Source: Candidatus Omnitrophota bacterium (GTDB lineage: Bacteria; Omnitrophota; Gorgyraeia; 2-01-FULL-45-10). Taken from it: a stretch of DNA of 51,196 bases. The notes under the pieces are model-generated. The model saw nothing but the letters and a program-made list of their open reading frames with translations. It had not been told where the DNA came from and made no database searches. The position numbers and the translations under genes were made by a program. Position 1 is the first letter of the stretch. Each line of letters opens with the position of its first letter. The DNA is taken from positions 1-51,196 of the forward strand of contig JAGVGJ010000005.1 of the NCBI GenBank assembly GCA_020057115.1, written 5' to 3'. Shown piece after piece: positions 11,589 to 30,621 of the stretch.

Positions 11589-11592
11589 AGCT

Positions 11593-12513: not shown

Positions 12514-12514
12514 C

Positions 12515-13150: not shown

Positions 13151-13156
13151 ACGCAT

Positions 13157-16164: not shown

Positions 16165-16166
16165 AT

Positions 16167-16679
16167 ATGAGACATATACTGAAGAACAGGATCTTAAAAG
16201 GCGTGGTTACCAGGCATATCGAGCCGGAACTGTCCAATGAGGTAGAAGCAGCAGGGCTTGAGCTCTTGACTGCGATCCGGAAGAGATTCGGCAGGTCTTT
16301 ACATGTGCGTGAAGTGGATACAGGCTCATGCGGCGCCTGCGAGTCAGAGATAATCTCGGCTAATAACCCTATATATGACCTGCAGAGGTTCGGTATAAAT
16401 TTTGTGGCATCGCCTCGTCATGCCGACGCGCTTCTGGTGACCGGGCCGGTATCGAAAAATATGCTGATCGCTTTAAAGAAGACCTATGATGCCATGCCCG
16501 AACCCAAATTTGTCATCACTTTCGGGGATTGCGCTCTCGATGGCGGCATTTTTAAAAATTCGTATTATGTCGAAGGCGTTATAAAAGATATATTGCCGGT
16601 AGCATTGCACATCCCGGGATGCCCGCCAAACCCCGCGATTATGATCAAGTCATTATTAGCTTTTCTTAAAGAGCAGTAA
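16167..16679 (+). CDS. HyfI/NuoB-like Fe-S small subunit
   Basis: GSCGACE, SPRHAD, GDC, PGCPP. Confidence 0.88.
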   Translation: MRHILKNRILKGVVTRHIEPELSNEVEAAGLELLTAIRKRFGRSLHVREVDTGSCGACESEIISANNPIYDLQRFGINFVASPRHADALLVTGPVSKNMLIALKKTYDAMPEPKFVITFGDCALDGGIFKNSYYVEGVIKDILPVALHIPGCPPNPAIMIKSLLAFLKEQ

Positions 16680-16680
16680 A

Positions 16681-16730
16681 AAATAGGGACAGCGACTATT
16701 TTTTGAAAAAAATAGTCGCTGTCCCTATTT
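16681..16730. terminator. Perfect ~23-24-bp inverted repeat, bidirectional terminator or REP-like element
   Basis: AAATAGGGACAGCGACTATTTTTT / AAAAAATAGTCGCTGTCCCTATTT. Confidence 0.75.
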
Positions 16731-16748
16731 ATTTGCTATAATAACGCC

Positions 16749-17696
16749 ATGTCAAAACAATTCATAAAAGACCTTAAGGTCGGCGACAGGGTGGCATCCG
16801 TCTATCTTTTGAAGAAGAAGGATATGCAGAAGACCAAGGAGGGCAAGTCATACTTGAGGCTTGCGGTCGCTGACAAGAGCGGTTCTATCGAGGGCGTGAT
16901 GTGGGATAATGCCGAGACTGCAGACGCCAATATTGAGCAGGGTTTGCCCGTATTTATCAAGGGAAGCGTAAGCTCATACAGGGAGAATGTCCAGCTCAAA
17001 GTAGACGAGGCCCGCCCCGCGGCGCAGGATACATACAAGATAGAGGACCTGATCAGGTCCGTTGAAAATATAGACGGCATATTCAGCAAGGTCAAGGCAT
17101 ACCTTTCCGCCATATCGAACAAGCCGCTTGCTGCTCTTATAAAAGAGTTCCTCGACGATAAGGACCTTGTGGAAAGCTTTAAGAGGTCTCCCGCGGCCAG
17201 AAGCTGGCACAATGCGTACATAGGCGGCCTTTTAGAGCATACATGGGAAGTCATGTATATAGTCGATAAGATGTGCGATATATATCCCCAGGCAAACCGC
17301 GGCATCGCCATAGCAGGCGCTTTTCTTCATGACATAGGAAAGACCGCGGAGCTTGACCCTGCGACATTCGAATATACCGTAGAGGGAGGGCTTATAGGCC
17401 ATCTGCCCCTCGGCTTTGAGATATTATCCGGGAAGATAGCCCGCATAGAAGGTTTTCCCAAGGAGACAGCCACGCACTTAAGGCATATAATCTTAAGCCA
17501 CCACGGCGAATACGAGCAGCAGTCCCCCGTATTGCCTAAGACGCTCGAGGCTACTATCGTCTATCACGCCGATGACCTTGTCTCCCAGGCCAATGCCGTC
17601 AAAGAGATAATAATGGCCCAGTCGCAAGGCGAGCGCGACTGGTCGAATTATGTTACGATAAAGTCGAGACAATATTTTTTAAGGAAACCCGAATAA
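16749..17696 (+). CDS. YhaM-like OB-fold + HD-domain 3'-5' exoribonuclease
   Basis: N-terminal OB fold (DKSGSIEG.MW), HNAYIGGLLEH, LHDIGK, SHHG, HADD. Confidence 0.85.
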   Translation: MSKQFIKDLKVGDRVASVYLLKKKDMQKTKEGKSYLRLAVADKSGSIEGVMWDNAETADANIEQGLPVFIKGSVSSYRENVQLKVDEARPAAQDTYKIEDLIRSVENIDGIFSKVKAYLSAISNKPLAALIKEFLDDKDLVESFKRSPAARSWHNAYIGGLLEHTWEVMYIVDKMCDIYPQANRGIAIAGAFLHDIGKTAELDPATFEYTVEGGLIGHLPLGFEILSGKIARIEGFPKETATHLRHIILSHHGEYEQQSPVLPKTLEATIVYHADDLVSQANAVKEIIMAQSQGERDWSNYVTIKSRQYFLRKPE

Positions 17697-17711
17697 GTTA
17701 AGGAGATTAAG

Positions 17712-18164
17712 ATGAGATCCTGCATAATATCGCTCGTGGTATTCATGATCGGCTGTGCGCTGGTCATTTCGGGGTGCGCTACTCCCATGGAGAGCCTGAA
17801 GATAGTAGCCGGCACCTCCACCAAGTCTATCGAGGATTCAAGGAAGGACGCTTTAGAGAAGGTCTTCGGTTATGACTATGGGACATGCTATGTAAAGACG
17901 GAATATGTCCTTAAAGCGATACCGAGGATCTCCATATACTCCAAGAACGAGGACATGATAGCCGTCAATTATAACAGCGTCAATGTCACGCCCGTCGGCG
18001 TATTCTTTACGGAAGTGGACCAGACGCACACGCGGGTAGAGATCTCGTCTCCGAGCCCTGAGGCCAGGGCGTATGTGGCTAAGAGCGTATTCGCCGGAGA
18101 GGTCCAGCCGGATACTGACAAATTGACGGTGGAAGTGCGCCAGCCTATCGCAGGCAAGTATTAG
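17712..18164 (+). CDS. Hypothetical lipoprotein
   Basis: Signal peptide with ISGC lipobox; AAGGAG RBS. Confidence 0.7.
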   Translation: MRSCIISLVVFMIGCALVISGCATPMESLKIVAGTSTKSIEDSRKDALEKVFGYDYGTCYVKTEYVLKAIPRISIYSKNEDMIAVNYNSVNVTPVGVFFTEVDQTHTRVEISSPSPEARAYVAKSVFAGEVQPDTDKLTVEVRQPIAGKY

Positions 18165-18180
18165 AAGAAAGGGTAGCTCC

Positions 18181-18987
18181 TTGAAACTTACCGTATCGCT
18201 CGCCCAGATAGATGTCATAAGATCAGATCCCGAAACCAACCTTAAAAAAGGCGAGGCCCTCATTGCAGAGGCAAGCCTTGGTCAGAGCGATATCATATGC
18301 TTCCCTGAGCTGTGGACTACCGGGCTTGACTGGGCCGCTAGTGAGCGCATAGCTGCTCTCCAGGGCGAGACTATAGAGCGTATAAGCGAGATGGCAAAGC
18401 GCTATCGCATCTGGATAAGCGGTTCTGTCCTGGAGCTCAATGAACGCGGCAGGCCGTCCAATACGCACATCCTTTTTGATCCATCCGGAAAACGCGCCGG
18501 GACATATAGAAAAACCCACCTGTTCAGCATGCTCCACGAAGATGAGCACATGGCTCCCGGGAATTCTTTGTGTCTTGTGGATACGCCATGGGGCCTGGTC
18601 GGGCTTTCGGTATGCTATGACATCCGTTTTCCGGAGCTATTCCGCACTTATGCCATTAAAGGCGCCAAGATCGTGATATCACCCATGGCATTTCCTTATC
18701 CGCGCGTAAACCACTGGAAAGTGCTGGTGCGCGCGCGGGCGATCGAAAATCAATTGTATATGATAGGCGTTAACCGCGTGGGCGCCGAAGATCTCGGCAA
18801 GGACGGGAATATTGCGTACTTCGGCGATTCTGTTATAATAGACCCGTGGGGCGAGACGGTGATCGAGGCAAAAGAGAAAGAAGAAGAGCTTGTCACGGCA
18901 TCCATAGATATGGATCGCGTAGATGAAGTCCGGGCCAGGATGAATGTCCTGAAAGACCGCCGGCCGGACCTGTACGAACTGAAATAA
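18181..18987 (+). CDS. Carbon-nitrogen hydrolase (nitrilase family, omega-amidase-like)
   Basis: Catalytic triad motifs FPE, YRKTHL, CYDIRFPE; RARAIENQ. Confidence 0.9.
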   Translation: MKLTVSLAQIDVIRSDPETNLKKGEALIAEASLGQSDIICFPELWTTGLDWAASERIAALQGETIERISEMAKRYRIWISGSVLELNERGRPSNTHILFDPSGKRAGTYRKTHLFSMLHEDEHMAPGNSLCLVDTPWGLVGLSVCYDIRFPELFRTYAIKGAKIVISPMAFPYPRVNHWKVLVRARAIENQLYMIGVNRVGAEDLGKDGNIAYFGDSVIIDPWGETVIEAKEKEEELVTASIDMDRVDEVRARMNVLKDRRPDLYELK

Positions 18988-19002
18988 AACAAGGAGGCAG
19001 TC

Positions 19003-19638
19003 ATGAAGAAGCGTGTTTTAAGCATCATGCTCGCGGCGCTGATATTTGCGTTCTCAGTGTCTACGGCATCTGCCGCTACCACGGAGGAGTGGGTGAGCGG
19101 GATGGGGTATAAGTTCTTCAGGGGTTTTATCAATGCCGGGACCGGATGGTGGGAGATACCGGCTCAGATAGGCAAGGGCTATAACAGCAGCAATTTCCCC
19201 GGAGCATTCGGCGGTATATTTGTCGGCGTATGGCATGCCCTCGGTCGCACGATCTCAGGCGTGGGCGACATGGCAGGTTTCTGGGCGGCTGACCCGAAGG
19301 ACAATGATAAGGTCGGCGTTTCGCTCGACGATGAATATTCATGGAAGACCGGCGTGAAGCATGATATCACCGTTGAAGTCGTAGGCAATAAACTCGGCAG
19401 GGGCCTTGGCAATACCATTTTCGGGCTCTGCGAGATACCGGGACAGGTGGCAAAAGGATGGAAGAACCACGCGGCAGACGCAGGGCTGGGGAAAGGTATC
19501 TGGTATGCCTTCAGCCGCGAGATGGACGGCATCATAGATCTGGTTACGTTCCTCCTCCCAAATCCCATAGACACCAAAGCGCTTCCGTTCGATGAACAGT
19601 GGCCGTGGACAGCCTGCGGCGAGAATATGATGAAATAG
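19003..19638 (+). CDS. Secreted/membrane protein with two TIGR04073-like (exosortase-associated) repeats
   Basis: KFFRGFINAGTGWWEIP and KLGRGLGNTIFGLCEIP repeats, DLVTFLLP; signal peptide. Confidence 0.6.
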   Translation: MKKRVLSIMLAALIFAFSVSTASAATTEEWVSGMGYKFFRGFINAGTGWWEIPAQIGKGYNSSNFPGAFGGIFVGVWHALGRTISGVGDMAGFWAADPKDNDKVGVSLDDEYSWKTGVKHDITVEVVGNKLGRGLGNTIFGLCEIPGQVAKGWKNHAADAGLGKGIWYAFSREMDGIIDLVTFLLPNPIDTKALPFDEQWPWTACGENMMK

Positions 19639-19654
19639 TAAGTCCTTTAAAAGG

Positions 19655-19692
19655 AATGGGGGCGGACCGAATACGGGCCGTCCCCATTTTTC
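19655..19692 (+). terminator. Intrinsic terminator-like hairpin
   Basis: AATGGGGGCGGACCG-aata-CGGGCCGTCCCCATT followed by T run. Confidence 0.6.
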
Positions 19693-19695
19693 TAT

Positions 19696-20502
19696 ATGCT
19701 AAAGAGAACAATAAGTTTCGTGATTATTCTCGCAGTCACCGCATGCGTTATCTTTCCGGCGCCATGCGCGACCGGAGAAGAACTCCAGTACAGGAAGGTA
19801 TCCCTTGACGATGTATCCTGCGACATAGGTATCCGTTACGCAGATACGTCCGAAGGCATGGATGTGGCTGTTTCGGCCATAGCGCTGGGGTGGGGCACTG
19901 AATTCAGGCACTGGAGGATCGACAAGATAAAACTGCGGATAGGAAATGCCAGGATACGGCCTGACAAGAATGAGCTATTCTTTGTCAGGAAAGAATCCTT
20001 CTGGCGCATTCCGGCCGCGGTCCTATGGGCCGTCATCGGAGCCATGTATGAATCGCCGGAGGGCACAAGCCAGTTCGACAAGGTCCTTACCAATATAGGG
20101 CTGGCGGCAGGCCTCGGGATATTGACATTGCAGGCAAAAGGCGATATTCCCGGCCAGAAGTGCGTGTTCCATTTAAAGAAGGATATCGCGGAGAAGATAG
20201 CTTACGGCAAAGACTCGATAGTGATCAGTCTCAATGACGAGTATACGCACGAAAGTTATGATATAAGAATAGGCATGACAAAGGCTCCTGCAGGTGAAAA
20301 AAATGGGCCGGATTATAGCGGCATGTCGAAGGAAGAGCTTCAGAAGACGATGATGAAGATCGACGAGCAGGCCACTGCCCTCGAGAAAGACCTCTCTTTA
20401 TATAAATACGGCCAGGATCCTAAATATGACGATATACAGTCAAGGATAGAGAGCTTAAGGTCTGAGCAGGCAAGAGCATATAAGGCTTGGACCGAGAAAT
20501 AG
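19696..20502 (+). CDS. Hypothetical exported/membrane protein with C-terminal coiled coil
   Basis: Signal peptide, two hydrophobic segments, heptad-like tail. Confidence 0.65.
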   Translation: MLKRTISFVIILAVTACVIFPAPCATGEELQYRKVSLDDVSCDIGIRYADTSEGMDVAVSAIALGWGTEFRHWRIDKIKLRIGNARIRPDKNELFFVRKESFWRIPAAVLWAVIGAMYESPEGTSQFDKVLTNIGLAAGLGILTLQAKGDIPGQKCVFHLKKDIAEKIAYGKDSIVISLNDEYTHESYDIRIGMTKAPAGEKNGPDYSGMSKEELQKTMMKIDEQATALEKDLSLYKYGQDPKYDDIQSRIESLRSEQARAYKAWTEK

Positions 20503-20550
20503 AACGGTCAAGGCGCCATTTTCCTATATTATATGATATAATTATAACCT

Positions 20551-21288
20551 ATGGCTGTTATACATTTTTTAGGGACGAATGGATGGTATGATACCGATAC
20601 CGGCAATACTGTTTCGGTCCTTATAGACGCTAAAGACCGCTACGTGATCCTTGATGCCGGATTTGGCTTTTACAAGATAGGCAGGTATGTCAAAGAGCCT
20701 AAACCCGTAGACTTGTTCTTGAGCCACCTTCACCTTGACCACATAATAGGCCTTCATACGCTGCCGCTATTCAAGTTCTCCCAGGGGATCGATTTTTACA
20801 TGCCCCCGGATTCGGAAAAAGATATCAGGACATTCGTCGGGAAACCATTCACAAGGCCTATCGGCGAAATGCCTACGGAAATAAGGCTTCATGATCTAAG
20901 CCGGGACATCCCGCCTTATGCCGAATTTAAAGAGCTCAAACATGCCGTCAAATGCTATGGCTTCAGGCTCAAGCTGGATGGAAAGACGATAGCATTCTGC
21001 ACGGATACGGAAGATTGCGATGGCCTGCGGGCTCTGGCCAAAGACGCGGATATCCTTATCACCGAATGCGCGTTCAGGTCGAGCGACCAGACGAAGGGGT
21101 CATTCCATCTCAATCCGGAGGCGGCGGCAACAGCGGCCAAAGAGTCGGGCGCGAAAATGTTGGCCCTCATGCATTTTGACCCGGGCAGATACCCGTTCCT
21201 GAAAGACCGGAAGGCCGGAGAAGCCTCGGCAAGGAAGATATTTAAAAATACTTTTGCGGCAAAAGACGGCGAAACCATCGCTCTGTAG
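20551..21288 (+). CDS. RNase Z-like metallo-beta-lactamase fold hydrolase
   Basis: FLGT, LDAG, SHLHLDH, TDT, ITEC, FHL, LMHF. Confidence 0.85.
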   Translation: MAVIHFLGTNGWYDTDTGNTVSVLIDAKDRYVILDAGFGFYKIGRYVKEPKPVDLFLSHLHLDHIIGLHTLPLFKFSQGIDFYMPPDSEKDIRTFVGKPFTRPIGEMPTEIRLHDLSRDIPPYAEFKELKHAVKCYGFRLKLDGKTIAFCTDTEDCDGLRALAKDADILITECAFRSSDQTKGSFHLNPEAAATAAKESGAKMLALMHFDPGRYPFLKDRKAGEASARKIFKNTFAAKDGETIAL

Positions 21289-21316
21289 TTAAAATAAATA
21301 GAAATAAAAAACGGAG

Positions 21317-21670
21317 GTGCGCATGAAATTTTTATTTAAAATCGGGCTCGTTGTGACGGTATCCGTATTTTTGTTTTCCGGGATGATGTTTGCAGACGAG
21401 CCAGGCCAGGACGCCCAGACAGGCGTGAAGCTTTTAAGAGAGGCCGCCGCAGCATTAAAACCTTATGACGTGGAGCTTGCCAATAAGGTGAATATCTACG
21501 CTGATATGGAGCAGGAAGAGCTGTTGGGCAGGGAAGGCAGCATAGGCGAAGCTGCCATGTTAAAGACTGCTGCCAGAGAGCTCAAGGCTTCAAATCCCGA
21601 GCTCTCCCAGAGACTTGACGCCTTTGCGGATAAAGAGATAAAAGAACAGGCCGAAAATGACCAGGAATAG
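21317..21670 (+). CDS. Small secreted helical protein with internal repeat
   Basis: GGAGG RBS, signal peptide, two similar ~30-aa helical units. Confidence 0.65.
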   Translation: MRMKFLFKIGLVVTVSVFLFSGMMFADEPGQDAQTGVKLLREAAAALKPYDVELANKVNIYADMEQEELLGREGSIGEAAMLKTAARELKASNPELSQRLDAFADKEIKEQAENDQE

Positions 21671-22838
21671 CACGGAGGCGCGCGTGAGAATATTTTTGCG
21701 GGTTTTTATATCGGCGTATGCCTGTCTTTTTCTGATAGGGTGCGCGTCATTGCCTAAGGACTACGTAAAGGAATTATATAAGCGCATCCCGCATAAGATC
21801 GAAGGGGAATGCAAGGTCGTCAATATCTTTTACGCGACTGTCCGTAACCAGGATACAAAGAAAGAAGGGGTCTGTTTCGGCCCCAGGCTTGCCGATAGCC
21901 TTACCTATGGCACCATGGATGTTAAGATAAATCCCAGCGTAAGGATAGGCAAGATGCTGCCCAATAAGCTTAAGCGCAGGGGTATCCTCGGGATGCAGGA
22001 TGTTGCTAAGTTCGGCTATACCGAGTTTATGAGTAAGCTGTCGGAAGCAGTGAAAAGTTCTCCGCACAATTCGCTATTGGTCCTCATATTCGGGTATCAG
22101 GATAATTTTGAAGCTACGGCTATCAAGGCGGCGTACTTTGCTTATCTTTTAGATGTCAACACGCCGGTGCTGCTTTTTGACTGGCCCGGAGACCAGCCGT
22201 TCACTCCCGGAGGATATCACAAGGCGCGCATGAACGCGAATGCGTCAGGGCCTTATCTCGGCGACCTGCTGGCAAAGATAGCGCGCGAAATAAGACCTGC
22301 CAAGATGTGGGTGGAAGCATCCAGCCTTGGCTGCCAGGTGACATGCGATGCATTCGAACAGATGTACGCTCATGCGGACATGGCGGACGCAGATACGGAG
22401 ATAACGCATGTGATACTTGCTGCGCCGGATGTCGCGAAAGAAGAGTTTGACGACGAGTTCAAGAAGGAGATCGTCGCCCTTTCCGACAAGGTCACCGCTT
22501 ATGTCTCTTCCAACGATACGGCGCTCTTGATGAGCAGTATCCTGGACAATAAGCAGAAGCTTGGCCGCATGAAGTTAAAATACGACCAGGACCAGCTGGA
22601 TGAGGCGAGCGGCATGCTGTACATGAAATCGCTGGAGCCGGAGAAGTATTCGGTGATCGACGTCACTCCCATAAACACGGCTTCATACAAGCACGGATAT
22701 TATCTTGAAGCTCCGGAATTCTACGATGATTTTTATTTAAGGATATTTGATAAGGCGCCTCACATGAACAGGAACCTGTATCTTGTGAAGCATAAAGGCA
22801 AGATAGATCTTTGGGTGCTTCAGCCGAACAACAAATAA
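21657..22838 (+). CDS. DUF900-like alpha/beta hydrolase lipoprotein
   Basis: LIGC lipobox, IFYATVR, FDWPG, ASSLG elbow, LAAPD, YVSSNDTAL, HGYY. Confidence 0.8.
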   Translation: MTRNSTEARVRIFLRVFISAYACLFLIGCASLPKDYVKELYKRIPHKIEGECKVVNIFYATVRNQDTKKEGVCFGPRLADSLTYGTMDVKINPSVRIGKMLPNKLKRRGILGMQDVAKFGYTEFMSKLSEAVKSSPHNSLLVLIFGYQDNFEATAIKAAYFAYLLDVNTPVLLFDWPGDQPFTPGGYHKARMNANASGPYLGDLLAKIAREIRPAKMWVEASSLGCQVTCDAFEQMYAHADMADADTEITHVILAAPDVAKEEFDDEFKKEIVALSDKVTAYVSSNDTALLMSSILDNKQKLGRMKLKYDQDQLDEASGMLYMKSLEPEKYSVIDVTPINTASYKHGYYLEAPEFYDDFYLRIFDKAPHMNRNLYLVKHKGKIDLWVLQPNNK

Positions 22839-22872
22839 GGTGATTAAAAAGCGATAAAGGCGAGGTAATGAT

Positions 22873-24990
22873 ATGAAAGACGGCCGTTCAAATAAAAAAG
22901 CGTTTAGCATAATAGCGGTGCTTTGCGTCGCGAGCTTCGTTCTGCTTTCGGCGCAAGCCGCTTTTTACTGGAAATCAAGGATAGGATCGACTAAGGCGGC
23001 CGACAAGCTTGTCAGGACCCAGACCCAGGCCGCCGCCGAAGAGATCGGCGTCGAGACGAGGAAGATAGAGGGGATAGTAAGATCTATCGCCGCGGACCTG
23101 GGCGAGAGGCCTTTGAGCCAGAGGGGCCTTGAAGAGAAGCTTGAAAAGGCGCTAGCAGATAACCCCCAGCTCTATGATATAGGCGCCGCATACGCTCCGG
23201 GCAACGGGGGACAAGCTCCGGCGCTGTATGATATGCGTTATGCCAGAAAAGCCTCAAAGCCTTATCAGGTCGCTCAGGACGCGTCATGCGATTACACGAA
23301 GGAGAGCTGGTATAAGGATGCCCTGGGAAGCCGCGGTATATGGGCAGAGCCTTTTCGTTCAAGGACCGACAAAACTCTTGTCGTAGTTTTTGCATTGCCT
23401 TTCCGTTCCGAAGACAGGGGCGGAGTATTATACGCAAGTGTCTCTATCGACACGATAAGACAATTCGCTCACTCGTTCAAGTTCGGTGATACAGGCTATT
23501 GTTATATACTATCCAGGACCGGGACCTTTATATATCATCCCGTGAAAGAGGCTGCGGAATCCCAGAAGACCGTATTCCAGATAGCCAGGGGCGGAGATAA
23601 GCCGAAGAACAAAGATTTTGTAGAGGTGACTAAGAGAGCTATCGCGGGTGAGGCGGTGAAGCTCGACGTGACAAATCCCGTCACAGGCCAGCATTTCAAG
23701 CTCTCCTATTTCCCCGTACCCCTTACAGGATGGACGTTAGGCGCCATATATTTTTCCGATGAGATATTTACGCGGGAGAACGTATTCCGTAAGGAGAAGA
23801 TGTGGATAATGCTGTGGCTGGTAATATTCCTGACCCTCTTCTCCGGCCTTATATTCCGCGTTTATAACTTAAGCCAGCCGGGACTATGGTCGGTATCCGC
23901 TATTTTCTCTGCGCTCTGCATGGCCGGAGCATTCTATATATGGCATCTTGCATTATCCGCACCGCTCGTAGAAGAGAATAAGAAGATGGTATTTACCGAT
24001 GCGCCTTCATTAAGCCGGTTCGTGGGAGAGTATTCGAGCAAATTCAGGAAGGCCAACAGGAAAGCGCCGTCTTATATCCCGACCGGCATATATGTGCAGT
24101 CACTCGAATTCATAAATGCGAACAACCTCAGAGTGGCAGGTTACATATGGCAGAAATACCAAGATGGGATACATGATGATCTGGAGCGCGGTTTCAATAT
24201 GCCGGAGGCGAAGGATGTCGAGATCAAAGAGGTCTATCGCCGCAAGACCGGGAAGATCGAAGTGATAGGTTGGCATTTCGAAGCTACCATAAGAGAGGTG
24301 TTCGACTACTCAAAATATCCTTTTGACAGGCCGGATATATGGATATGGTTAAAATATAAAGATCCGACAGCGAATGTCGTTCTCATACCGGATCTCGAGG
24401 CTTATAAGTTCATCACTCCTGCCGCCATGCCGGGACTGCAGGAAGATCTCGCATTCCCAGGATACGTATTCCTCGGGGCATTCTTCGATTATGAATATCA
24501 TATACGCAGCGCTAATCTTGGCATCTCAAGCGACGACCAGGCAGATCGCACGCCGGAGTTTTACTATAATATTATAGTGAGGCGTAATTTTGTGACGCCT
24601 TTCGTGTCGAGATTGTTCCCGCTCTTCATAATGTTCGCGATACTATTCGTGGTCCAGCTCATGTTCTCGCAGGACGAGGAGAAGAAGAAGGCTTTCGGGC
24701 TCAATGCCTTTGCCGTGATGGGCGTTGTGATAACATTCTTCTTCTCGACGCTCTTATCGCACAACAGTTTGCGGCAAGAGCTCAACGTCGATAAGATCAT
24801 ATTCATCGAGAATTTCCATTTTATCGCGTATCTGATGCTCCTTTTAGCCACGATAAAGACGCTCCTCTTTATAGGCGGCAAGGGGACGCGTTTTGTCCAG
24901 TATAAGCAGGGGCTGATACCGAAACTTCTGTATTGGCCCATGCTCACGGGGCTGGTTTTCATGGTGAGCTTCCTGAATTTCTACAGGTAA
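22873..24990 (+). CDS. Cache-domain-fused pentameric ligand-gated ion channel-like protein
   Basis: TM, dCache (WYKDA, WAEPF, GYCYILS..GTFIYHP), 2 TM, beta-rich domain (GYIWQKY, FDYSKYPFD), 4 C-terminal TM helices. Confidence 0.72.
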   Translation: MKDGRSNKKAFSIIAVLCVASFVLLSAQAAFYWKSRIGSTKAADKLVRTQTQAAAEEIGVETRKIEGIVRSIAADLGERPLSQRGLEEKLEKALADNPQLYDIGAAYAPGNGGQAPALYDMRYARKASKPYQVAQDASCDYTKESWYKDALGSRGIWAEPFRSRTDKTLVVVFALPFRSEDRGGVLYASVSIDTIRQFAHSFKFGDTGYCYILSRTGTFIYHPVKEAAESQKTVFQIARGGDKPKNKDFVEVTKRAIAGEAVKLDVTNPVTGQHFKLSYFPVPLTGWTLGAIYFSDEIFTRENVFRKEKMWIMLWLVIFLTLFSGLIFRVYNLSQPGLWSVSAIFSALCMAGAFYIWHLALSAPLVEENKKMVFTDAPSLSRFVGEYSSKFRKANRKAPSYIPTGIYVQSLEFINANNLRVAGYIWQKYQDGIHDDLERGFNMPEAKDVEIKEVYRRKTGKIEVIGWHFEATIREVFDYSKYPFDRPDIWIWLKYKDPTANVVLIPDLEAYKFITPAAMPGLQEDLAFPGYVFLGAFFDYEYHIRSANLGISSDDQADRTPEFYYNIIVRRNFVTPFVSRLFPLFIMFAILFVVQLMFSQDEEKKKAFGLNAFAVMGVVITFFFSTLLSHNSLRQELNVDKIIFIENFHFIAYLMLLLATIKTLLFIGGKGTRFVQYKQGLIPKLLYWPMLTGLVFMVSFLNFYR

Positions 24991-25002
24991 GAGAGGCTGG
25001 AG

Positions 25003-26589
25003 ATGAAACAGGCGATCGCATTCTTAAAGAGTTTTCGCGCGAAGGTCACGCTCGCGCTCGTATTGTCGATGCTCTTCATAGGGGCGATGAGCAATTTTCT
25101 GATATATGAGTATTCGCTGAAGGCCCAATTCGAACAGCTTCGCTCTAAATTGGTGATAATGGCTAAAGCCGCGACGCTCCAGATAGAAGCTGATACCGTG
25201 ATAGGAGTTCCACTGACCAAGGATGGTACGCTCAGTCCTCAATATGGGGTACTTACTGAAAGGCTATCAAGATTCAACGACATAGAACCTGCCATCGCCT
25301 ATGCGTATATACTGACCAAGACGGGAAGGCAAGGTTTGCTGAAGTTCGTGATAGATGTCCGGTCAAAGAGCGCGCCCGAAAACAGACCACCTGCTTATCC
25401 CGGAGAGGAGTATGATGCTTCGCGTTTCCCGGAGCTTCTGAACGGATTTAACGGGCCGTCTGCGGACAGGAAGCTGGCCGCTGATGAATGGGGCATGTCG
25501 CTTTCAGGCTATGCTCCGATACTGGATAAAGACGGAAAGTCCATAGCCATGCTCGGCATAGATGTGAATGCGAATGACGTTTACAATATCCAGAAAGAGG
25601 TCCGGCGCAGGGCGCAGTTCGTCATGCTAATAGGCCTGGCGCTGTCTCTTGCTCTTGGGATGCTCATCTCCGGAAGGATAGCCGGGCCTATAAGAAAACT
25701 TGCCGAGGGGACGCGACACCTCGCCAGGGGAGAGCTGGATTACAAGATAGACGTAAAAGGCTCGACCGAGATAATGGAGCTCGCCCGCTCCATGAACAGG
25801 ATGTCGGCCGACCTCAAGAGCCATATAGAGGTGTTGAAGCGCACGACTGCCGAAAGAGAGCGGCTGATGAGGGAGCTCGAGATAGCAAGGGGCATACAGC
25901 AGAGCTTCCTGCCGCAAGCTCTTCCTTACTTGAAGGGGCTGGATATGGCGGTCTTCTGCATACCGGCAAGCATCGTGGGAGGGGATTTTTATGATTTTAT
26001 ACCGCTTGAACATGGCAAGTGGGGCCTTGTGGTCGCTGATGTCTCCGGCCGGGGGATACCGGCCGCTCTCTTCATGGCCCTGTCGCGGACCATATTCAAT
26101 ATAACGGCCAAAGAGAGGTGTCCGGTCCATGAGATAGTAGGAAAGGCCAACAGGCTGATAACCGAGAATAACAAGGCCAACATGTTCGTGACCCTGTTTT
26201 ATGCGGTCCTGGACGAGGAGCGCTCGACGCTTACTTATGCGAATGCAGGGCATAATCCGTCTCTCCTGATAAGAGAGGGCAGGGAAGACATACATCTATT
26301 GATGGCGCAAGGTATCCCTCTTGGCATGTTCTCGGATAATGAGATGACCTCCGAAGAGATAAAGCTTAAGAAAGGCGATATCATAGTCCTTTACACCGAC
26401 GGCATCGTTGAAGCGATAAATTTCGGTCATGAACAGTTCGGCATCGAACGGCTTTCGGAGGTAGTCAAGACAAACTGCGACCTTCCGTCAGGCAAGATAC
26501 TGGAGAAGGTCCGCGACGCGCTCAATGGTTTTGTGGGCAATGAGCCGCAGTTCGACGACATGACCATGATGGTGCTGAAAGTCGTATAG
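25003..26589 (+). CDS. Membrane sensor with HAMP + SpoIIE/RsbU PP2C phosphatase
   Basis: VGGDFYD, ADVSGRG, NAGH, YTDG, DDMT; two TMs flanking a periplasmic domain. Confidence 0.92.
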   Translation: MKQAIAFLKSFRAKVTLALVLSMLFIGAMSNFLIYEYSLKAQFEQLRSKLVIMAKAATLQIEADTVIGVPLTKDGTLSPQYGVLTERLSRFNDIEPAIAYAYILTKTGRQGLLKFVIDVRSKSAPENRPPAYPGEEYDASRFPELLNGFNGPSADRKLAADEWGMSLSGYAPILDKDGKSIAMLGIDVNANDVYNIQKEVRRRAQFVMLIGLALSLALGMLISGRIAGPIRKLAEGTRHLARGELDYKIDVKGSTEIMELARSMNRMSADLKSHIEVLKRTTAERERLMRELEIARGIQQSFLPQALPYLKGLDMAVFCIPASIVGGDFYDFIPLEHGKWGLVVADVSGRGIPAALFMALSRTIFNITAKERCPVHEIVGKANRLITENNKANMFVTLFYAVLDEERSTLTYANAGHNPSLLIREGREDIHLLMAQGIPLGMFSDNEMTSEEIKLKKGDIIVLYTDGIVEAINFGHEQFGIERLSEVVKTNCDLPSGKILEKVRDALNGFVGNEPQFDDMTMMVLKVV

Positions 26590-26610
26590 ACCTAAAGAGA
26601 AATATAAAAT

Positions 26611-27384
26611 ATGACGATCATGAAATATACCGTGGGGGCATTGATGATGCCCGTATTCTCTATATTCCTGGCTTCCGCTTCATTTGCCCAGGCTTCGGGG
26701 CAAGGCGACATATTTGCCCAGAGGCGCCAGGAGATGGTAGACAGGCAGATAAGGCAGCGCGGCGTAACGGACAAGCGCGTCCTCGCCGCCATGCTTAAGG
26801 TCGAGCGCCACTTGTTCGTGCCGGTAGAACTGTCCGACATGGCGTATGAGGATACGCCGCTTCCTATAAGATTTGACCAGACTGTATCGCAGCCTTACAT
26901 AGTGGCCTTCATGACGGATGCGCTTGGACTTGAGCCGACCGACCGCGTCCTTGAGATAGGGACAGGCTCCGGATACCAGGCCGCCATACTGGCCGAGCTT
27001 GTAAAAGAGGTCTATACCATCGAGATAGTAAAAGAGCTTGCGGAGTCATCGGAAGAGCGTCTCAAGAAACTGGGATACGCCAATATCCACGTGAGGCTGG
27101 GCGACGGGTATAAAGGATGGCCCGAAGAGGCGCCATTCGACGCCATAATCGCTACGGCAGCGCCTCTCGAGATACCGGAGACGCTCCTTAAACAGCTTAA
27201 GACCGGCGGCAGGATGATCATACCCGTGGGATCTATATTCCAGCAGCTATTTCTTGTGACCAAAACGGAGAAGGGTTACGACAAGAAGGCTCTTTTACCG
27301 GTAAAATTCGTGCCCATGGTGACGCCATATGATAAGGATAGATCAAAAGACCCTAAATCGGATCAGGGGGGCATATTTCGATAA
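26611..27384 (+). CDS. pcm: Protein-L-isoaspartate O-methyltransferase with signal-peptide-like N terminus
   Basis: [39 protein letters not shown]. Confidence 0.93.
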
Positions 27385-27465
27385 GAGGTTCGTCTCTTCG
27401 GAGATCAGGACGAATCCTTTTGATGTGAATGCGTCTATAGAGGTCAAATAAAGAAAGGCAAGATA

Positions 27466-28503
27466 ATGAGTTTTGAATATCTGGTGAAGGTTCCCACGGC
27501 TTTAGAAATAATAAACGAGATGCCGCTCACCAAAGAATTGAAAAGCGTCAAGGCAAAGAGGGATAAAGCGATACTCGACATATTCAAGAGGAAGAGCAGT
27601 AAGTTCATCGTGATAATCGGACCTTGTTCTGCCGATAACGAAAAAGCTGTCTGCGAATATGTGTCGCGTCTGGCGAAGCTGCAATCTGCCGTAAAGAGCC
27701 AACTTGTCCTCATCCCGAGGATCTATACGAACAAACCCCGGACTACCGGAGAAGGCTATAAAGGCATGGCCCACCAGCCCGATCCCCACGAGAAGCCGAA
27801 CATAGTCCAGGGCCTTAAGGCGATCAGGAGGATGCATTTAAGGGTCCTTAAAGAGACTGGCCTCACCGCGGCGGACGAGATGCTCTATTCGGAGAACTAT
27901 CCTTATCTCGAGGATGTGCTCAGCTATGTCGCCATCGGCGCGCGTTCGGTGGAGGACCAGCTCCACCGCCTTACGGTAAGCGGCGTAGATATACCGTGCG
28001 GTATGAAGAACCCGACGAGCGGCGACCTTAATGTCATGCTCAATTCCGTCCGCGCCGCCCAGATGTCCCATACATTCGTATATAACGGCTGGGAGGCGAG
28101 GACATCCGGGAACTCATTTGCCCACTGCATACTGCGCGGCGCGGTCAACCAGTATGGCCAGTCGATACCGAACTACCATTACGAAGACATGATGAGGCTC
28201 TCAGGAATGTACCTGGAGCGCTCGCTATTGAACCCCACGATAATCGTCGACGCAAGCCATGCAAACTCCAACAAGAACTTCAAGGACCAGCCCCGCATAG
28301 CCAAGGATATACTCTATAGCGTAAAGAATTCGGATATATTGAAGAAGCTGGTGAAGGGCATAATGATAGAGAGCTATCTTGTCGAAGGGTCGCAGAGCGT
28401 CACAGGAAAAGTTTTCGGCAGGTCAATAACCGATGCGTGTCTCGGCTGGAAGGACTCGGAAAAGCTTGTCCTTGAGCTGGCAGATCGCGTCTCTAAACTC
28501 TAA
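27466..28503 (+). CDS. DAHP synthase, class I-alpha
   Basis: IGPCSA, KPRTT, IGARS, GMKN, DASHANS, SITDACLGW. Confidence 0.93.
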   Translation: MSFEYLVKVPTALEIINEMPLTKELKSVKAKRDKAILDIFKRKSSKFIVIIGPCSADNEKAVCEYVSRLAKLQSAVKSQLVLIPRIYTNKPRTTGEGYKGMAHQPDPHEKPNIVQGLKAIRRMHLRVLKETGLTAADEMLYSENYPYLEDVLSYVAIGARSVEDQLHRLTVSGVDIPCGMKNPTSGDLNVMLNSVRAAQMSHTFVYNGWEARTSGNSFAHCILRGAVNQYGQSIPNYHYEDMMRLSGMYLERSLLNPTIIVDASHANSNKNFKDQPRIAKDILYSVKNSDILKKLVKGIMIESYLVEGSQSVTGKVFGRSITDACLGWKDSEKLVLELADRVSKL

Positions 28504-28518
28504 CGGAGGGCGTATATC

Positions 28519-28647
28519 ATGAGCATAGATATGTCGTGGTGCAAGTGCGGAGCCGGAGGCATATGCCCGATATGCAAGGTGCTGACGGTTGTAGCTATAG
28601 CGCTGGTGGCAGGAGCCGTAGGGTATTTCATGGGAAAGAAAAAATAA
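28519..28647 (+). CDS. Small Cys-rich single-TM peptide (42 aa), absent from the ORF track
   Basis: MSIDMSWCKCGAGGICPICKVLTVVAIALVAGAVGYFMGKKK; GGAGG RBS. Confidence 0.65.
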   Translation: MSIDMSWCKCGAGGICPICKVLTVVAIALVAGAVGYFMGKKK

Positions 28648-28659
28648 CGGAGGGCGTCC

Positions 28660-28803
28660 ATGGCAAAGATAAAGGTATTTAAGATCCGCAACAGAAAAGG
28701 TTATGCCGCCATATGCTGCAACAATATCACCGAGGGCAATACGCCGGCCGCTGCCAGAGAGAGGATGGAGAAGGCTCTTAAGCGGAAGCCCAAGAAGGGA
28801 TAA
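28660..28803 (+). CDS. Small basic protein (47 aa), HicB-N-terminus-like pattern, absent from the ORF track
   Basis: MAKIKVFKIRNRKGYAAICCNNITEGNTPAAARERMEKALKRKPKKG; GGAGG RBS. Confidence 0.7.
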   Translation: MAKIKVFKIRNRKGYAAICCNNITEGNTPAAARERMEKALKRKPKKG

Positions 28804-28815
28804 TGTTGTCGTATC

Positions 28816-28865
28816 TGTCATTGCGAGGAGGCTCTAGTTTTTCATGCGTGCCGACGAAGCAATCT
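28816..28865 (+). repeat. RPE/REP-like palindromic element
   Basis: TGTCATTGCGAGGAG...GCCGACGAAGCAATCT termini. Confidence 0.55.
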
Positions 28866-29755
28866 TACCAATCATAGCGATAAACGATATAGACGACCCC
28901 CAGATCTCATTCTACCGCTCGTTAAAGGGTAGACAGCTCGGCAGGGAAGGCATCTTTATTGTCGAGGGCCCGAAAGCGGTCAAGGCGCTCCTTGAGGGCG
29001 ATATTAAGGTCATATCCTGCCTTACGACAAAAGATTTTTATAAGAAGTTCCGCACCAGTCTTTTGAAGCTTGCCGGAAAAGGTATCCCTGTATACCTTAT
29101 GTCCAGAGAGTCGGTGGGGGATGTGATAGGTTTCAATTTCCACCAGGGGCTCATGGTGGCCTGCCGGATCCCTAAAAAGATATCCCTGGAGAGCGGGATA
29201 AAAAGCTTAAAGAGGCCGTATCTTCTCGCGGCGCTTAATGGCGTGAATGATCCGGAGAATGTCGGCTTGATAGCGCGCAATGCAGCGGCATTCGGCGCAA
29301 GCGCCATGATAGTGGACGAGAAGACATATGATCCTTATTACCGGCGGGCCGTCAGAGTGTCGGTGGGCGCCATATTCAAGATACCGGTATTCCATGTCGG
29401 AAGGCTTGCGCCCGAGCTTAAACGGCTCAAGAAGTCCGGAGTGAAGGTGATAGTCACGCATTTGGGCAAGAAGAGTAAAGACATAAAGGATGTAGACCTT
29501 TCGCAGGATGTGTGCATTATATTCGGCAACGAAGATAAAGGGGTTGACAGAGACGTGCTTGCCGAAGCCGATCATGCGGTGAAGATACCCATATCAGGGA
29601 AAGTGGATTCGCTTAATGTCGCCTCCGCGTCGGCTATAATTTTACGCGAAGCATTCATGAAGAAGGGGCAAGGGTCTCCCGCCCGCCTGGCATCTAGGGG
29701 CGGGACAGGCAGGGTCCGGGGTCCAGGGGAGAAGGCGTGGAAAAGTTTATCGTAG
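28844..29755 (+). CDS. TrmH/SpoU-family RNA methyltransferase
   Basis: DPENVGLIARNA, FGNEDKG, VDSLNVASA; both ends uncertain. Confidence 0.9.
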   Translation: MRADEAILPIIAINDIDDPQISFYRSLKGRQLGREGIFIVEGPKAVKALLEGDIKVISCLTTKDFYKKFRTSLLKLAGKGIPVYLMSRESVGDVIGFNFHQGLMVACRIPKKISLESGIKSLKRPYLLAALNGVNDPENVGLIARNAAAFGASAMIVDEKTYDPYYRRAVRVSVGAIFKIPVFHVGRLAPELKRLKKSGVKVIVTHLGKKSKDIKDVDLSQDVCIIFGNEDKGVDRDVLAEADHAVKIPISGKVDSLNVASASAIILREAFMKKGQGSPARLASRGGTGRVRGPGEKAWKSLS

Positions 29756-30621
29756 AAGAAGAAACAGGGCTTTTAGACTTCCTTTTTAAAGTCCTTAAGG
29801 GGTATAACAAGAATAAGGTCCGCAATTACCTTAAGTTCGGCGCAGTCTCCGTCAACGGCACCGTATCAAGAAGACATGACCACTGTCTTAGATGCGGCAG
29901 CGAAGTCACTGTCCAAACGAATAAGAAGGAGATCCTGGTCGCGTCAAGAAAATATCCTTTTAAGATAGTATTTGAGGATGACGATATCATAGTTATAGAC
30001 AAGCCTGCGGGCCTGCTTACGATAGCTACCGAGAAAGAGAAGGATGATACAGCCTACAGGGCTCTTACGGAATACGCGAGCCTGCGCGACCCTTCGGGCA
30101 GGGGCAGGGTGTTCATAGTGCACAGGATAGACCGCGATACGTCAGGCCTTGTCATATTCGCAAAGAGGGGCGAAGCCAAAGAGAAACTCCAGGAGGGCTG
30201 GGGCTCGGTCGAGAAACGCTACATGGCTGTCCTGGAAGGATCCCCGCAGAAAGAGAGCGGCATAATAAAGACGAGCCTCGCGGAAAATAAGTTCCGCACC
30301 GTCTATTCCGGACCCAGGAGCGAAAGCTCCAAGATAGCCGTCACGCGGTACAGGATCCTGAAAATAGCGGAGAGATACTCGCTGGCGGAGATCATCATCG
30401 ATACCGGCAGGAAACACCAGATAAGGGTGCATATGGCCAATATAGGATGCCCGATAGCGGGTGACTCAAGATACGGAGCAAAGACCGATCCGGCGGGGAG
30501 GCTCGCCCTGCACGCTTCATACATATCCTTTAAACACCCGGCGACCGGCAAGACGCTTATATTTGAGAGCCGGCTTCCCGAGCCATTGCGCAGGCTGATA
30601 CCAGGACTTAAGACCGCTTAA
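29737..30621 (+). CDS. RluA-family pseudouridine synthase
   Basis: IDKPAGL, HRIDRDTSG, TGRKHQIRVH, GDSRYG. Confidence 0.93.
   Translation: MEKFIVEEETGLLDFLFKVLKGYNKNKVRNYLKFGAVSVNGTVSRRHDHCLRCGSEVTVQTNKKEILVASRKYPFKIVFEDDDIIVIDKPAGLLTIATEKEKDDTAYRALTEYASLRDPSGRGRVFIVHRIDRDTSGLVIFAKRGEAKEKLQEGWGSVEKRYMAVLEGSPQKESGIIKTSLAENKFRTVYSGPRSESSKIAVTRYRILKIAERYSLAEIIIDTGRKHQIRVHMANIGCPIAGDSRYGAKTDPAGRLALHASYISFKHPATGKTLIFESRLPEPLRRLIPGLKTA

Follow-up and report, generated by a model that had tools for sequence, protein, structure and literature searches.

A probable Cache-fused pentameric ligand-gated channel subunit and its probably co-transcribed neighbors in an Omnitrophota bacterium

Introduction

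Four genes lying end to end on a contig of Candidatus Omnitrophota encode a putative secreted protein, an alpha/beta-hydrolase-like lipoprotein, a membrane protein with a Cache sensor domain, and a membrane sensor phosphatase. The question raised by this locus is whether the four products work together, as proposed in the original prediction of a self-contained chemical signaling module, or whether the third gene encodes a receptor channel that only shares a transcript with its neighbors. It is very probable, in our judgment, that the 705-aa product of the third gene forms one subunit of a prokaryotic pentameric ligand-gated ion channel (pLGIC) of the Cache-fused kind, and that the flanking genes, probably co-transcribed with it, are not its functional partners.

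Organization of the four-gene locus

Within the window (the whole stretch of 51,196 nucleotides that was analyzed), the list of open reading frames (ORFs) agreed with the original prediction in placing four genes on the plus strand. These code for a 117-aa putative secreted protein with a GTG start (21317-21670), a 393-aa lipoprotein-like alpha/beta-hydrolase of the DUF900 family, PF05990 (21657-22838), the 705-aa protein, read from its ORF, Pfam, an AF2 model, and Foldseek as a dCache-hairpin-pLGIC subunit with a 7-TM protomer (22873-24990), and a 528-aa HAMP-PP2C/SpoIIE membrane sensor phosphatase identified by Pfam (25003-26589). The junctions between the four ORFs are, in this order, -14, +34, and +12 nt, the first being a 14-nt overlap of the 393-aa ORF with the upstream 117-aa ORF. 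Because the junctions are short and no terminator-like site was detected between the four genes, they are probably transcribed as one unit; in particular, the gaps of 12 to 34 nt make co-transcription of the channel gene with the DUF900 and PP2C genes likely. The minus strand of the four genes has ORFs of its own, such as 25627-26295 (222 aa), which overlap well-supported plus-strand genes.

The four genes belong to a run of 12 co-directional ORFs (16749-28503) separated by gaps of -14 to 81 nt, which also holds the genes for a CN-hydrolase, an MBL-fold protein, PCMT, and DAHP synthase. The run is preceded by a strong terminator-like hairpin (16682-16729) and followed by a gap of 340 nt, and a total of 22 consecutive genes (13157-35455) are all on the plus strand. 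The description of the four genes as tightly spaced and co-oriented was therefore true of them, but it is not distinctive, and their tight spacing is simply the general packing of this 1.8-Mb genome. Probably, the flanking genes share a transcript with the channel gene, all being members of one long series of mutually unrelated genes in this compact genome. Promoter-like sites numbered 22, as compared with 18.4 +/- 4.7 in shuffled sequences, indicating no enrichment, and no Rfam family was found on 16000-30000. No RNA run containing the 5.3-kb stretch was listed; one DNA run was, with a 0.05 share of sampled words.

Domains and topology of the 705-aa protein

By Kyte-Doolittle analysis, seven hydrophobic segments were identified in the 705-aa protein at residues 13-31, 310-328, 338-356, 581-599, 610-628, 642-660, and 685-703, and the same crude scan gave seven segments in 47 of 65 family members. 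The order along the chain is one TM segment, a dCache domain, two TM segments, a beta-rich domain, and four TM segments; this layout, as originally predicted, was obtained alike from Pfam, from hydrophobicity, and from the structural model.

The first TM segment and a stalk helix (residues 2-78 form one helix in the model) stand ahead of the dCache sensor domain, which was assigned to residues 43-290 (22999-23742, plus strand) by a Pfam match to dCache_1 with an E-value of 2.5e-20. The family profile matched the PDB sensors 3li8 (E 1e-28) and 3lib (E 2e-27) in this domain, and Foldseek comparison of the full-length model aligned it with 3lic and 3lib at target-normalized TM scores of 0.75-0.80, while a separate region of the same model aligned with the channel GLIC at 0.68-0.74. 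The two-helix membrane hairpin that follows, residues 302-361 (23776-23955, plus strand), is defined by hydrophobicity and by model helices at 302-327 and 335-361. The pLGIC extracellular domain, residues 377-573 (24001-24591, plus strand), consists in the model of an N-terminal helix and a beta-sandwich, and contains the sequence YPFD at residues 482-485, corresponding exactly to the positions 24316-24327 (plus strand) predicted from the DNA. The pLGIC transmembrane domain (24592-24984, plus strand) is formed in the model by M1 (574-597), M2 (612-637), M3 (646-668), and M4 (681-704).

The topology that emerges is self-consistent and in part shown, and runs from a cytoplasmic N-terminus through the periplasmic dCache domain, an in-out hairpin, and the periplasmic pLGIC ectodomain to M1-M4. 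Through the hairpin the chain is predicted to enter the cytoplasm and return across the membrane, so that the channel ectodomain lies in the periplasm like the Cache domain. The cytoplasmic loops between the seven TM segments are rich in K and R.

Assignment of the C-terminal half to the pLGIC family

The original prediction had assigned the C-terminal half to the pLGICs, and structural comparison bore this out. An AF2 model of residues 382-705 (pLDDT 92.9, pTM 0.84) was compared with the PDB by Foldseek, and the best match was GLIC of Gloeobacter violaceus (PDB 3eam, 6f0j), a proton-gated pLGIC, with an E-value of 6.3e-15 and TM scores of 0.73-0.77 over about 334 columns. All of the 50 matches listed were pLGICs (GLIC, sTeLIC, DeCLIC, GlyR, GABA-A), and the identity to these solved structures was 13-16% among the matches listed. 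GLIC is the best match in both structure and sequence, and its protomer fold corresponds from the N-terminal helix to M4; it differs from the 705-aa protein in lacking a Cache domain as well as the additional TM helices. The charged M1-M2 loop found here exceeds that of GLIC by 8 residues, as estimated from a profile alignment through M1-M3.

In sequence searches of the PDB, the C-terminal half retrieved by phmmer only GLIC and GLIC chimeras among the 60 matches listed (best E 0.0066), and the profile of 47 family sequences only GLIC-type chains among the 60 listed (best E 3.2e-4). The phmmer alignment sets the YPFD of the 705-aa protein against the YPFD of GLIC, and the profile alignment extends from beta6 to M3, taking in the Pro-loop and the pre-M1 Arg. 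Numbered from the start of the C-terminal half, P102, R190, and W86 are invariant in the 47 sequences and D104 is conserved in at least 90% of them. The invariant Pro and the conserved Asp indicate that YPFD is more than a chance match, in support of its first reading as the [FY]PxD Pro-loop signature of pLGICs, which lies between beta6 and beta7. The counterpart of R190 in GLIC is the pre-M1 Arg; in the available text of Tasneem et al. (2004; PMC549065), a basic residue closing the ligand-binding domain (LBD), which pairs with the acidic residue of the Pro-loop, is given as a highly conserved feature. Positions 9' and 16' of M2 are I and L in the HMM alignment, in which the TM register is uncertain, and are thus hydrophobic as in conducting channels.

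The Pfam models Neur_chan_LBD (PF02931) and Neur_chan_memb (PF02932), recognition by which is an annotation criterion rather than a structural definition, gave no match to the 705-aa protein at E <= 10 and matched none of the 47 family members at E <= 1; neither was among the 120 rows listed. With a best PDB E-value of 3e-4 even for the profile and with these models silent, pLGIC membership rests mainly on the predicted fold and on the hallmark residues, homology at the sequence level being detectable, if weakly. A trimer prediction with three copies of residues 382-705 scored 0.35, the mark being 0.42 and the controls 0.00, and weighs neither for nor against a homo-oligomer. As judged from the model, a complete pLGIC protomer, joined to a Cache sensor, makes up the C-terminal half.

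Distribution of the family and earlier descriptions

A total of 1517 cluster representatives (50% identity), most of them of about 700 aa, were collected as family members at E <= 1e-3. When species-representative genomes were searched for related loci with a 28-sequence alignment, 350 stretches were found, including those in Methanosarcina, Cytophagaceae, and Cellvibrionaceae. The clade is large and widespread, extending through the bacteria and into Methanosarcina. In the source annotations these proteins appear only as 'cache domain-containing protein', and Pfam and NCBIfam carry no channel label for them.

The architecture itself is not new, having been known since 2004. The first description of prokaryotic LGICs fused to MCP-N/Cache domains, made by bioinformatics, is in PMC549065, which agrees in its available parts with the original statement that some bacterial pLGICs carry Cache domains. 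The proteins described there resemble the 705-aa protein in having a Cache-type sensor N-terminal to the LBD and to a 4-TM channel, and they come from the same sporadic taxa (Methanosarcina, Cytophaga, and Microbulbifer/Cellvibrionaceae). The extra domains are placed there between signal peptide and LBD, and no membrane hairpin separating the Cache domain from the LBD is mentioned in the parts available; such a hairpin is predicted here family-wide, and the words 'additional transmembrane' are absent from PMC549065. In the operons that its available text gives, the channel gene is joined by PBP-II or Cache genes, and none of them includes DUF900 or PP2C.

A literature search for work on Cache-fused pLGICs as such returned nothing relevant, and neither 'Cache' nor 'NTD' occurs in PMC4795631 (Jaiteh et al. 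2016). According to the accessible sections of PMC12664993 (2025), no Cache-fused pLGIC has been studied experimentally so far, and the N-terminal domain (NTD) of DeCLIC is the only pLGIC NTD characterized to date. DeCLIC (Desulfofustis; PDB 9ftg, 9ev1) resembles the 705-aa protein as a prokaryotic pLGIC whose ectodomain is preceded by a large accessory domain in the periplasm. This NTD differs in being made of periplasmic lobes that resemble calcium-binding domains, and the name 'Cache' is never used for it in the sections at hand.

Proteins encoded by the flanking genes

The 117-aa protein has a hydrophobic N-terminus, signal peptide-like by eye, and an acidic helical remainder, and no Pfam or NCBIfam family matched it above cut-off. 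Among 40 related genomes the search gave no ortholog and just two matches, both of them weak (E 1.7e-4 and 4.9e-4), and the protein looks like a lineage orphan.

The 393-aa protein matched DUF900 with an E-value of 6.3e-29 (101.5 bits as compared with a cut-off of 20.5). A lipobox L-I-G-C read by eye at residues 26-29 makes it a probable lipoprotein. S223 (within ASSLG), D258, D287, and H346 are invariant in 12 orthologs; this set may include a catalytic triad, and the protein is probably an active serine hydrolase. No PDB entry was matched by sequence at E <= 1. In the part of PMC11878206 consulted, the function of DUF900 is described as unknown, and the accessible portion of the cinquedea preprint offers phospholipase activity, not small-ester hydrolysis, as the only functional lead for DUF900-type proteins.

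The 528-aa protein consists of a TM segment, a periplasmic domain of about 170 aa without Pfam match, a second TM segment, HAMP (E 1.1e-12), and PP2C/SpoIIE (E 1.5e-52). Its best NCBIfam match was SiaA (NF038263) at 81 bits, far below the cut-off of 700, and its identity as a SiaA equivalog was ruled out, only the HAMP-PP2C architecture being common. It shares this architecture with the SiaA/RsbU-type phosphatases and differs from them in that no partner-switching genes adjoin its gene and that the neighboring genes vary in relatives.

Gene neighborhood of channel homologs

Conserved linkage of channel homologs to hydrolase and phosphatase genes had been set beforehand as the criterion for a module, and a total of 83 homologous loci (79 from genomes and four from metagenomes) were surveyed. 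DUF900 was adjacent to the channel in none of the 83, and PP2C was near it in one, a genome locus where it lies 2.6 kb off behind two response-regulator genes. No relative of the 117-aa protein was found at the 79 genome loci, and neither DUF900 nor PP2C at the four metagenome loci. Pfam search of 278 neighbor ORFs (144 at +/-1 and 134 at +/-2) for PF05990 and PF07228 gave no match; these ORFs were picked by a greedy longest-ORF rule, 146 of 158 positions at +/-1 being present with some loci cut by contig ends, and three very long ORFs at +/-2 were left out.

Among 40 relatives of the organism, a channel ortholog was found only in G015, a member of the same family. DUF900 orthologs were present in 12, with no match in G015, and full-length PP2C orthologs in seven, the copy in G015 being on a different contig from the channel. 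In these relatives DUF900 and PP2C orthologs adjoin neither each other nor a channel, and their neighbors vary; none of eight other window genes used as queries was found within 1.5 kb of 11 DUF900 and 11 PP2C loci. On one metagenome contig (L115), which begins inside a channel gene of 75% identity and so displays its downstream side only, not the DUF900 side, the channel gene is followed by a 199-aa ORF and then by a homolog of the 211-aa protein of the window, with no PP2C. Three relatives (G010, G029, and G034) have ORFs of 719-805 aa, of which the N-terminal part matches the Cache region of the channel and the C-terminal part matches PP2C at 24-25% identity; these fusions were rejected as a Rosetta-stone link, Cache being a promiscuous domain and the identity so low.

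Altogether, the DUF900 and PP2C genes are not conserved partners of the channel gene, the close-range sampling being one same-family genome and one 75%-identical contig, and the trio appears to be a one-genome juxtaposition.

Discussion

Nicotinic receptor and acetylcholinesterase form an established receptor-esterase pairing, and the locus described here resembles it in that a protein of pLGIC fold and one of alpha/beta-hydrolase fold are both outside the cytoplasm. The two cases differ in that no conserved genomic or evolutionary link between channel and DUF900 genes was found; DUF900 proteins and cholinesterases are unrelated families beyond their common superfold. The proposed module would be one chemical signaling unit, in which the secreted protein and the DUF900 protein produce or break down the ligand of the Cache-pLGIC and the HAMP-PP2C protein provides a second, phosphorylation-based output. 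Such a unit would be in keeping with the probable single transcript, with the prediction from sequence and topology that all four products face or span the periplasm, and with the conserved Ser, Asp, and His of the DUF900 protein, probably an active hydrolase; the Cache-PP2C-like ORFs are a weak hint at most. The same tight spacing, however, joins the PCMT, DAHP synthase, and MBL-fold genes to the run, the 117-aa protein is without ortholog in the 40 relatives, and the phospholipase lead for DUF900-type proteins does not point to a small-ester hydrolase. The survey of homologous loci showed no conserved linkage to hydrolase or phosphatase; the module is not supported, and we regard it as very improbable. 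With co-transcription likely, a functional link confined to this lineage retains a small probability. The accompanying statement that no characterized system has this combination is correct, if only because the combination is apparently confined to one genome.

For the Cache-fused channel without dedicated partners, the families to which its domains belong suggest how it would work. Five subunits would surround a pore lined by M2, and a periplasmic small molecule would bind to the dCache domain, the ectodomain, or both, thereby shifting the equilibrium between closed and open states. The output would be an ion flux, changing membrane potential or ion balance, rather than a phosphorylation signal. 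In the phmmer alignment with PctA, the R, Y, and D of PctA (in RPW, EPY, and GGD, respectively), which we take to be the amino-acid-sensor motif positions of PctA-type dCache domains, are E, F, and S in the 705-aa protein; this is weak evidence against an amino-acid sensor of that type.

The C-terminal module might alternatively keep the pLGIC fold without conducting ions, serving the Cache domain as an oligomerization scaffold or conformational transducer. The extreme divergence of the sequence (13-16% identity among the Foldseek matches listed, and missed by the Pfam models) and the charged 8-residue insertion in the M1-M2 loop relative to GLIC would fit such a role, and the protein has no output domain in the cytoplasm from which a different function could be read. 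The absence of any other output domain, however, also leaves ion flux as the simplest output. Furthermore, all of M1 to M4 are kept in 47 sequences from many phyla, together with the hallmarks of the gating interface, namely the Pro-loop Asp and the pre-M1 Arg, and the 9' and 16' positions of M2, within the uncertainty of the register, are hydrophobic as in conducting channels. Loss of conduction is thus considered unlikely.

More tentatively, and with considerable doubt on our part, the Cache-hairpin-pLGIC clade might represent a distinct class of 7-TM pentameric channels, in which dCache is the primary agonist sensor and the two additional helices, packed on M1 and M4 in the manner of an integral auxiliary subunit, relay its signal to the pore, the canonical ectodomain site being secondary or vestigial. 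Gating by dCache through the hairpin, if true, would be a route not known in any characterized pLGIC. Bolder and still less likely is the further idea that, in this lineage, ion flux is linked to a phosphatase output through co-transcription of the channel gene with those of the HAMP-PP2C protein and the DUF900 lipoprotein.

The combination of receptor, esterase, and phosphatase is best regarded as a result of the dense packing of genes in a small genome, and should not be carried forward as a system. The interest of the locus lies in the channel that we consider very probable: a tractable Cache-pLGIC could reveal in what way a Cys-loop-type pore is modulated by an accessory sensor domain and by additional membrane helices, a matter that bears on receptor evolution and on auxiliary-domain gating in general.

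Four co-oriented genes and their packing

Four successive ORFs were identified on the forward strand, the junctions between them measuring -14, +34 and +12 nt. These encode a 117-aa putative secreted protein (21317-21670), for which Pfam gave no family above the cut-off; a 393-aa protein (21657-22838) with a DUF900 domain (PF05990, E 6.3e-29); a 705-aa protein (22873-24990) with dCache_1 at residues 43-290 (E 2.5e-20); and a 528-aa protein (25003-26589) with HAMP (E 1.1e-12) and SpoIIE (PF07228, E 1.5e-52) domains. The ORF coordinates, strands and Pfam matches confirmed the gene and domain layout of the original prediction. NCBIfam gave no family for the 117-aa, 393-aa and 705-aa proteins, and for the 528-aa protein SiaA alone, at 81 bits, far under the cut-off of 700; the likeness of this HAMP-PP2C membrane sensor to SiaA/RsbU is one of architecture type. 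A search of the region 16000-30000 against Rfam detected no family. By eye, the 117-aa protein carries a pair of similar helical segments, about 30 aa long, both of which end in an acidic ADxE stretch.

The four genes belong to a run of 22 consecutive forward-strand genes (13157 to 35455) and, within it, to a 12-gene block (16749-28503) whose genes are spaced by -14 to 81 nt and which includes, besides these four, genes for an HD/OB protein, a 150-aa unknown protein, a CN-hydrolase, two unknown secreted proteins, an MBL-fold protein, PCMT and DAHP synthase. The block is bounded by a terminator-like hairpin with a 20-bp stem (16682-16729) before its first gene and by a 340-nt gap after its last, and no intergenic terminator-like site was found inside. 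The hairpin, located directly after a complex-I/hydrogenase-like gene set (9753-16679), is a near-perfect palindrome with T-runs on both strands and resembles a bidirectional terminator. Because the gaps are short and no terminator-like site interrupts the block, co-transcription across all 12 genes is likely. Such co-transcription would tell nothing about a shared function of the four genes.

The C-terminal half of the 705-aa protein as a probable channel protomer

Pfam models for neurotransmitter-gated channels (Neur_chan) did not match the 705-aa protein even at E <= 10, nor did PF02931 or PF02932 match any of 47 members of its C-terminal-half family at E <= 1. When residues 382-705 were compared by phmmer with all PDB chains, 62 distinct sequences were obtained at E <= 10, and the 60 listed were all GLIC, the proton-gated pentameric ligand-gated ion channel (pLGIC) of Gloeobacter violaceus, or GLIC chimeras (best E 0.0066), the alignment setting DYSKYPFD of the 705-aa protein on DFRRYPFD of GLIC. 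The Pro-loop YPFD is located at residues 482-485 (nt 24316-24327, forward strand). A profile of 47 C-terminal halves likewise matched GLIC-type chains only among the matches listed (best E 3.2e-4), and its alignment with GLIC spans beta6, the Pro-loop, the pre-M1 Arg and M1-M3 with a single 8-residue insertion in the M1-M2 loop.

The AlphaFold2 model of residues 382-705, built from a 65-sequence alignment (pLDDT 92.9, pTM 0.84), has a helix at its N-terminus, then a beta-sandwich and four long helices. A Foldseek search of the PDB with this model gave GLIC (E 6.3e-15; TM 0.73-0.77, aligned over about 334 columns), and all 50 matches listed were pLGICs (GLIC, sTeLIC, DeCLIC, glycine receptors and GABA-A receptors). 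The Pro of the Pro-loop and the pre-M1 Arg do not vary among the 47 C-terminal halves, in which the Asp of the Pro-loop is at least 90% conserved; Tasneem et al. (PMC549065) pick out this Asp and the Arg as the most conserved positions of the superfamily. GLIC thus came out best in both the sequence and the structure search, and the C-terminal half folds as a pLGIC in the model. The predicted fold, the Foldseek match to GLIC and the hallmark residues altogether bear out the original prediction of a Cache-fused pLGIC; that the C-terminal half is a pLGIC protomer is well supported by the modelled fold and these residues, and the protein would be expected to form pentamers and conduct ions.

Architecture of the full-length protein

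The full-length model (pLDDT 87.9, pTM 0.79) begins with a long helix comprising TM1 and the Cache stalk (residues 2-78), followed by a double-Cache fold (83-298), a two-helix membrane hairpin (302-327 and 335-361), an ectodomain helix (377-393), the beta-sandwich and M1-M4. Foldseek matched separate regions of it to the dCache sensor domains 3lic and 3lib (target-normalised TM 0.75-0.80) and to GLIC (0.68-0.74), and no solved chain covering both was found, the highest query-normalised TM being 0.35. A hydropathy scan detected seven TM segments in the 705-aa protein, as it did in 47/65 family members. The N-terminus and M3-M4 loop of the 705-aa protein are rich in K/R, in keeping with a cytoplasmic N-terminus and a periplasmic place for the two sensor domains. 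On this layout the fusion has retained, in the form of the hairpin, the second TM of a Cache sensor plus the channel's signal anchor.

In alignment with PctA, the 705-aa protein has Glu, Phe and Ser where PctA carries its amino-acid-binding Arg, Tyr and Asp. To the extent that these three positions define the motif, the ligand is unlikely to be an amino acid held in the PctA manner.

Linkage to the hydrolase and the phosphatase

The 393-aa DUF900 protein has a lipobox, as read by eye, and is probably an active serine hydrolase, because a Ser (within ASSLG), two Asp and one His are invariant in 12 orthologues. The function of the family is listed as unknown in PMC11878206, and one preprint ties homologues of DUF900-type proteins to a secreted phospholipase.

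It had been proposed that the four genes form a self-contained signalling module, in which the hydrolase makes or destroys the channel ligand and the phosphatase provides a second output. For 79 loci of channel homologues, retained from 350 stretches encoding a channel relative in species-representative genomes, all ORFs of 60 aa or more within up to 7 kb per side were compared with the proteins of the window by phmmer. Relatives of the DUF900 protein and of the 117-aa protein were each found in 0/79 loci, and PP2C in one (L029, E 6.7e-6), 2.6 kb downstream and beyond two response-regulator genes. Pfam detected neither PF05990 nor PF07228 at E <= 1e-5 in the immediately flanking ORFs (144, from 78 loci) or, at E <= 1e-12, in the next ORFs out plus the two remaining ORFs of locus L079 (134 ORFs, with three very long ones left out).

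Clustering of all 281 neighbour ORFs gave three recurrent groups only: Peripla_BP_6 binding proteins in 12/79 loci, the gene being immediately upstream and co-oriented in 10; response-regulator domains in 10/79; and eCIS_core proteins in 7/79. The Peripla_BP_6 gene is directly upstream in L033, L041, L043, L045, L046, L047, L049, L053, L058 and L065, and on the opposite strand in L025 and L038; this partnership, the only strongly recurrent one in the 79 loci, belongs to a proteobacterial subclade of the channel family. eCIS_core (PF13699) is near the channel homologue in L015, L019, L020, L043, L049 and L058, and other injection-system genes in L070 (PAAR, gp25), L039 (gp25), L065 (Phage_GPD) and L018 (T6SS VasE). 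About ten loci, some of them from Methanosarcina or with Cache-less short forms, have genes typical of contractile injection systems or of their DUF4157/eCIS_core cargo within two genes of the channel homologue.

Four channel loci were recovered from metagenome contigs, none with a DUF900 or PP2C gene. In L115 (75% identity), whose contig is cut off upstream of the channel, a 199-aa ORF comes next after the channel, then a homologue (E 1e-74) of the 211-aa protein of the window (19003-19638), with no PP2C. The gene of this secreted protein of no known family precedes the channel gene by five genes in the window, and in L115 (1257-1928) it lies two genes downstream, so that the two genes stay close despite rearrangement. 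In L116 (50% identity) the channel is flanked by DUF1848 and adenosine deaminase, as in L007, and these two loci (about 50% identity) share the order DUF1848, channel, adenosine deaminase, AllG, indicating that gene order around the channel is kept in other sub-lineages too, with different genes.

The genome of the window is 1.79 Mb in size and 97% complete. Among 40 relatives, a channel orthologue was found in G015 only (60% identity), three others matching the Cache region alone; G015 gave no match to DUF900, and its PP2C orthologue is on a contig other than that of the channel. DUF900 orthologues were identified in 12 of the 40 and full-length PP2C orthologues in seven, with none for the 117-aa protein. 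None of the other eight query genes of the window was found within 1.5 kb of 11 DUF900 loci or 11 PP2C loci. The neighbours of these orthologues vary, except that in 4/11 loci a second alpha/beta hydrolase gene (Hydrolase_4/Abhydrolase_1, about 275 aa) directly precedes DUF900 on the same strand (L090:606-1439, L093:624-1448, L095:2697-3575 and L098:2654-3481), a GNAT acetyltransferase then following in two of the four. With DUF900 and the 117-aa protein in 0/79 channel loci and PP2C in 1/79, the self-contained four-gene module is not supported.

The sensor-HAMP N-terminal part of the 528-aa protein recurs in paralogues of about 470 aa in the relatives. Also found there are Cache-PP2C fusion sensors (G010:C8:17344-19209, G029:C4:192310-194079, G029:C13:3055-4824 and G034:C19:8105-9685), 719-805-aa ORFs with an N-terminal part similar to the Cache region of the channel (24-25% identity) and a C-terminal part similar to the PP2C domain of the neighbour gene.

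The Cache-pLGIC family

A search with the C-terminal half against 50% clusters gave 1517 representatives at E <= 1e-3, including 880 at E <= 1e-30, most being about 700 aa in length. Most of 120 listed matches of a word-indexed search carry dCache_1 and none a Neur_chan family, and in the source records they are called "cache domain-containing protein" or "hypothetical". Among the organisms behind the 79 loci are cyanobacteria, Cytophagaceae, Cellvibrionaceae, Nitrosomonas and numerous Methanosarcina, besides MAGs labelled Planctomycetia, Omnitrophota and Auribacterota.

The Cache-pLGIC architecture is already known since 2004: that of the 705-aa protein is the MCP-N + Cache + ART-LGIC type described by Tasneem et al. 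(2004; PMC549065) in Methanosarcina, Cytophaga and Microbulbifer. Nothing relevant was found in the literature on experimental or structural work on Cache-pLGICs, and a passage of PMC12664993 (2025) names DeCLIC as the sole pLGIC with an N-terminal domain even partly characterised. The interest lies in the Cache-pLGIC family itself, which is large, is not annotated as channels, and has a predicted membrane hairpin between the sensor and the channel.
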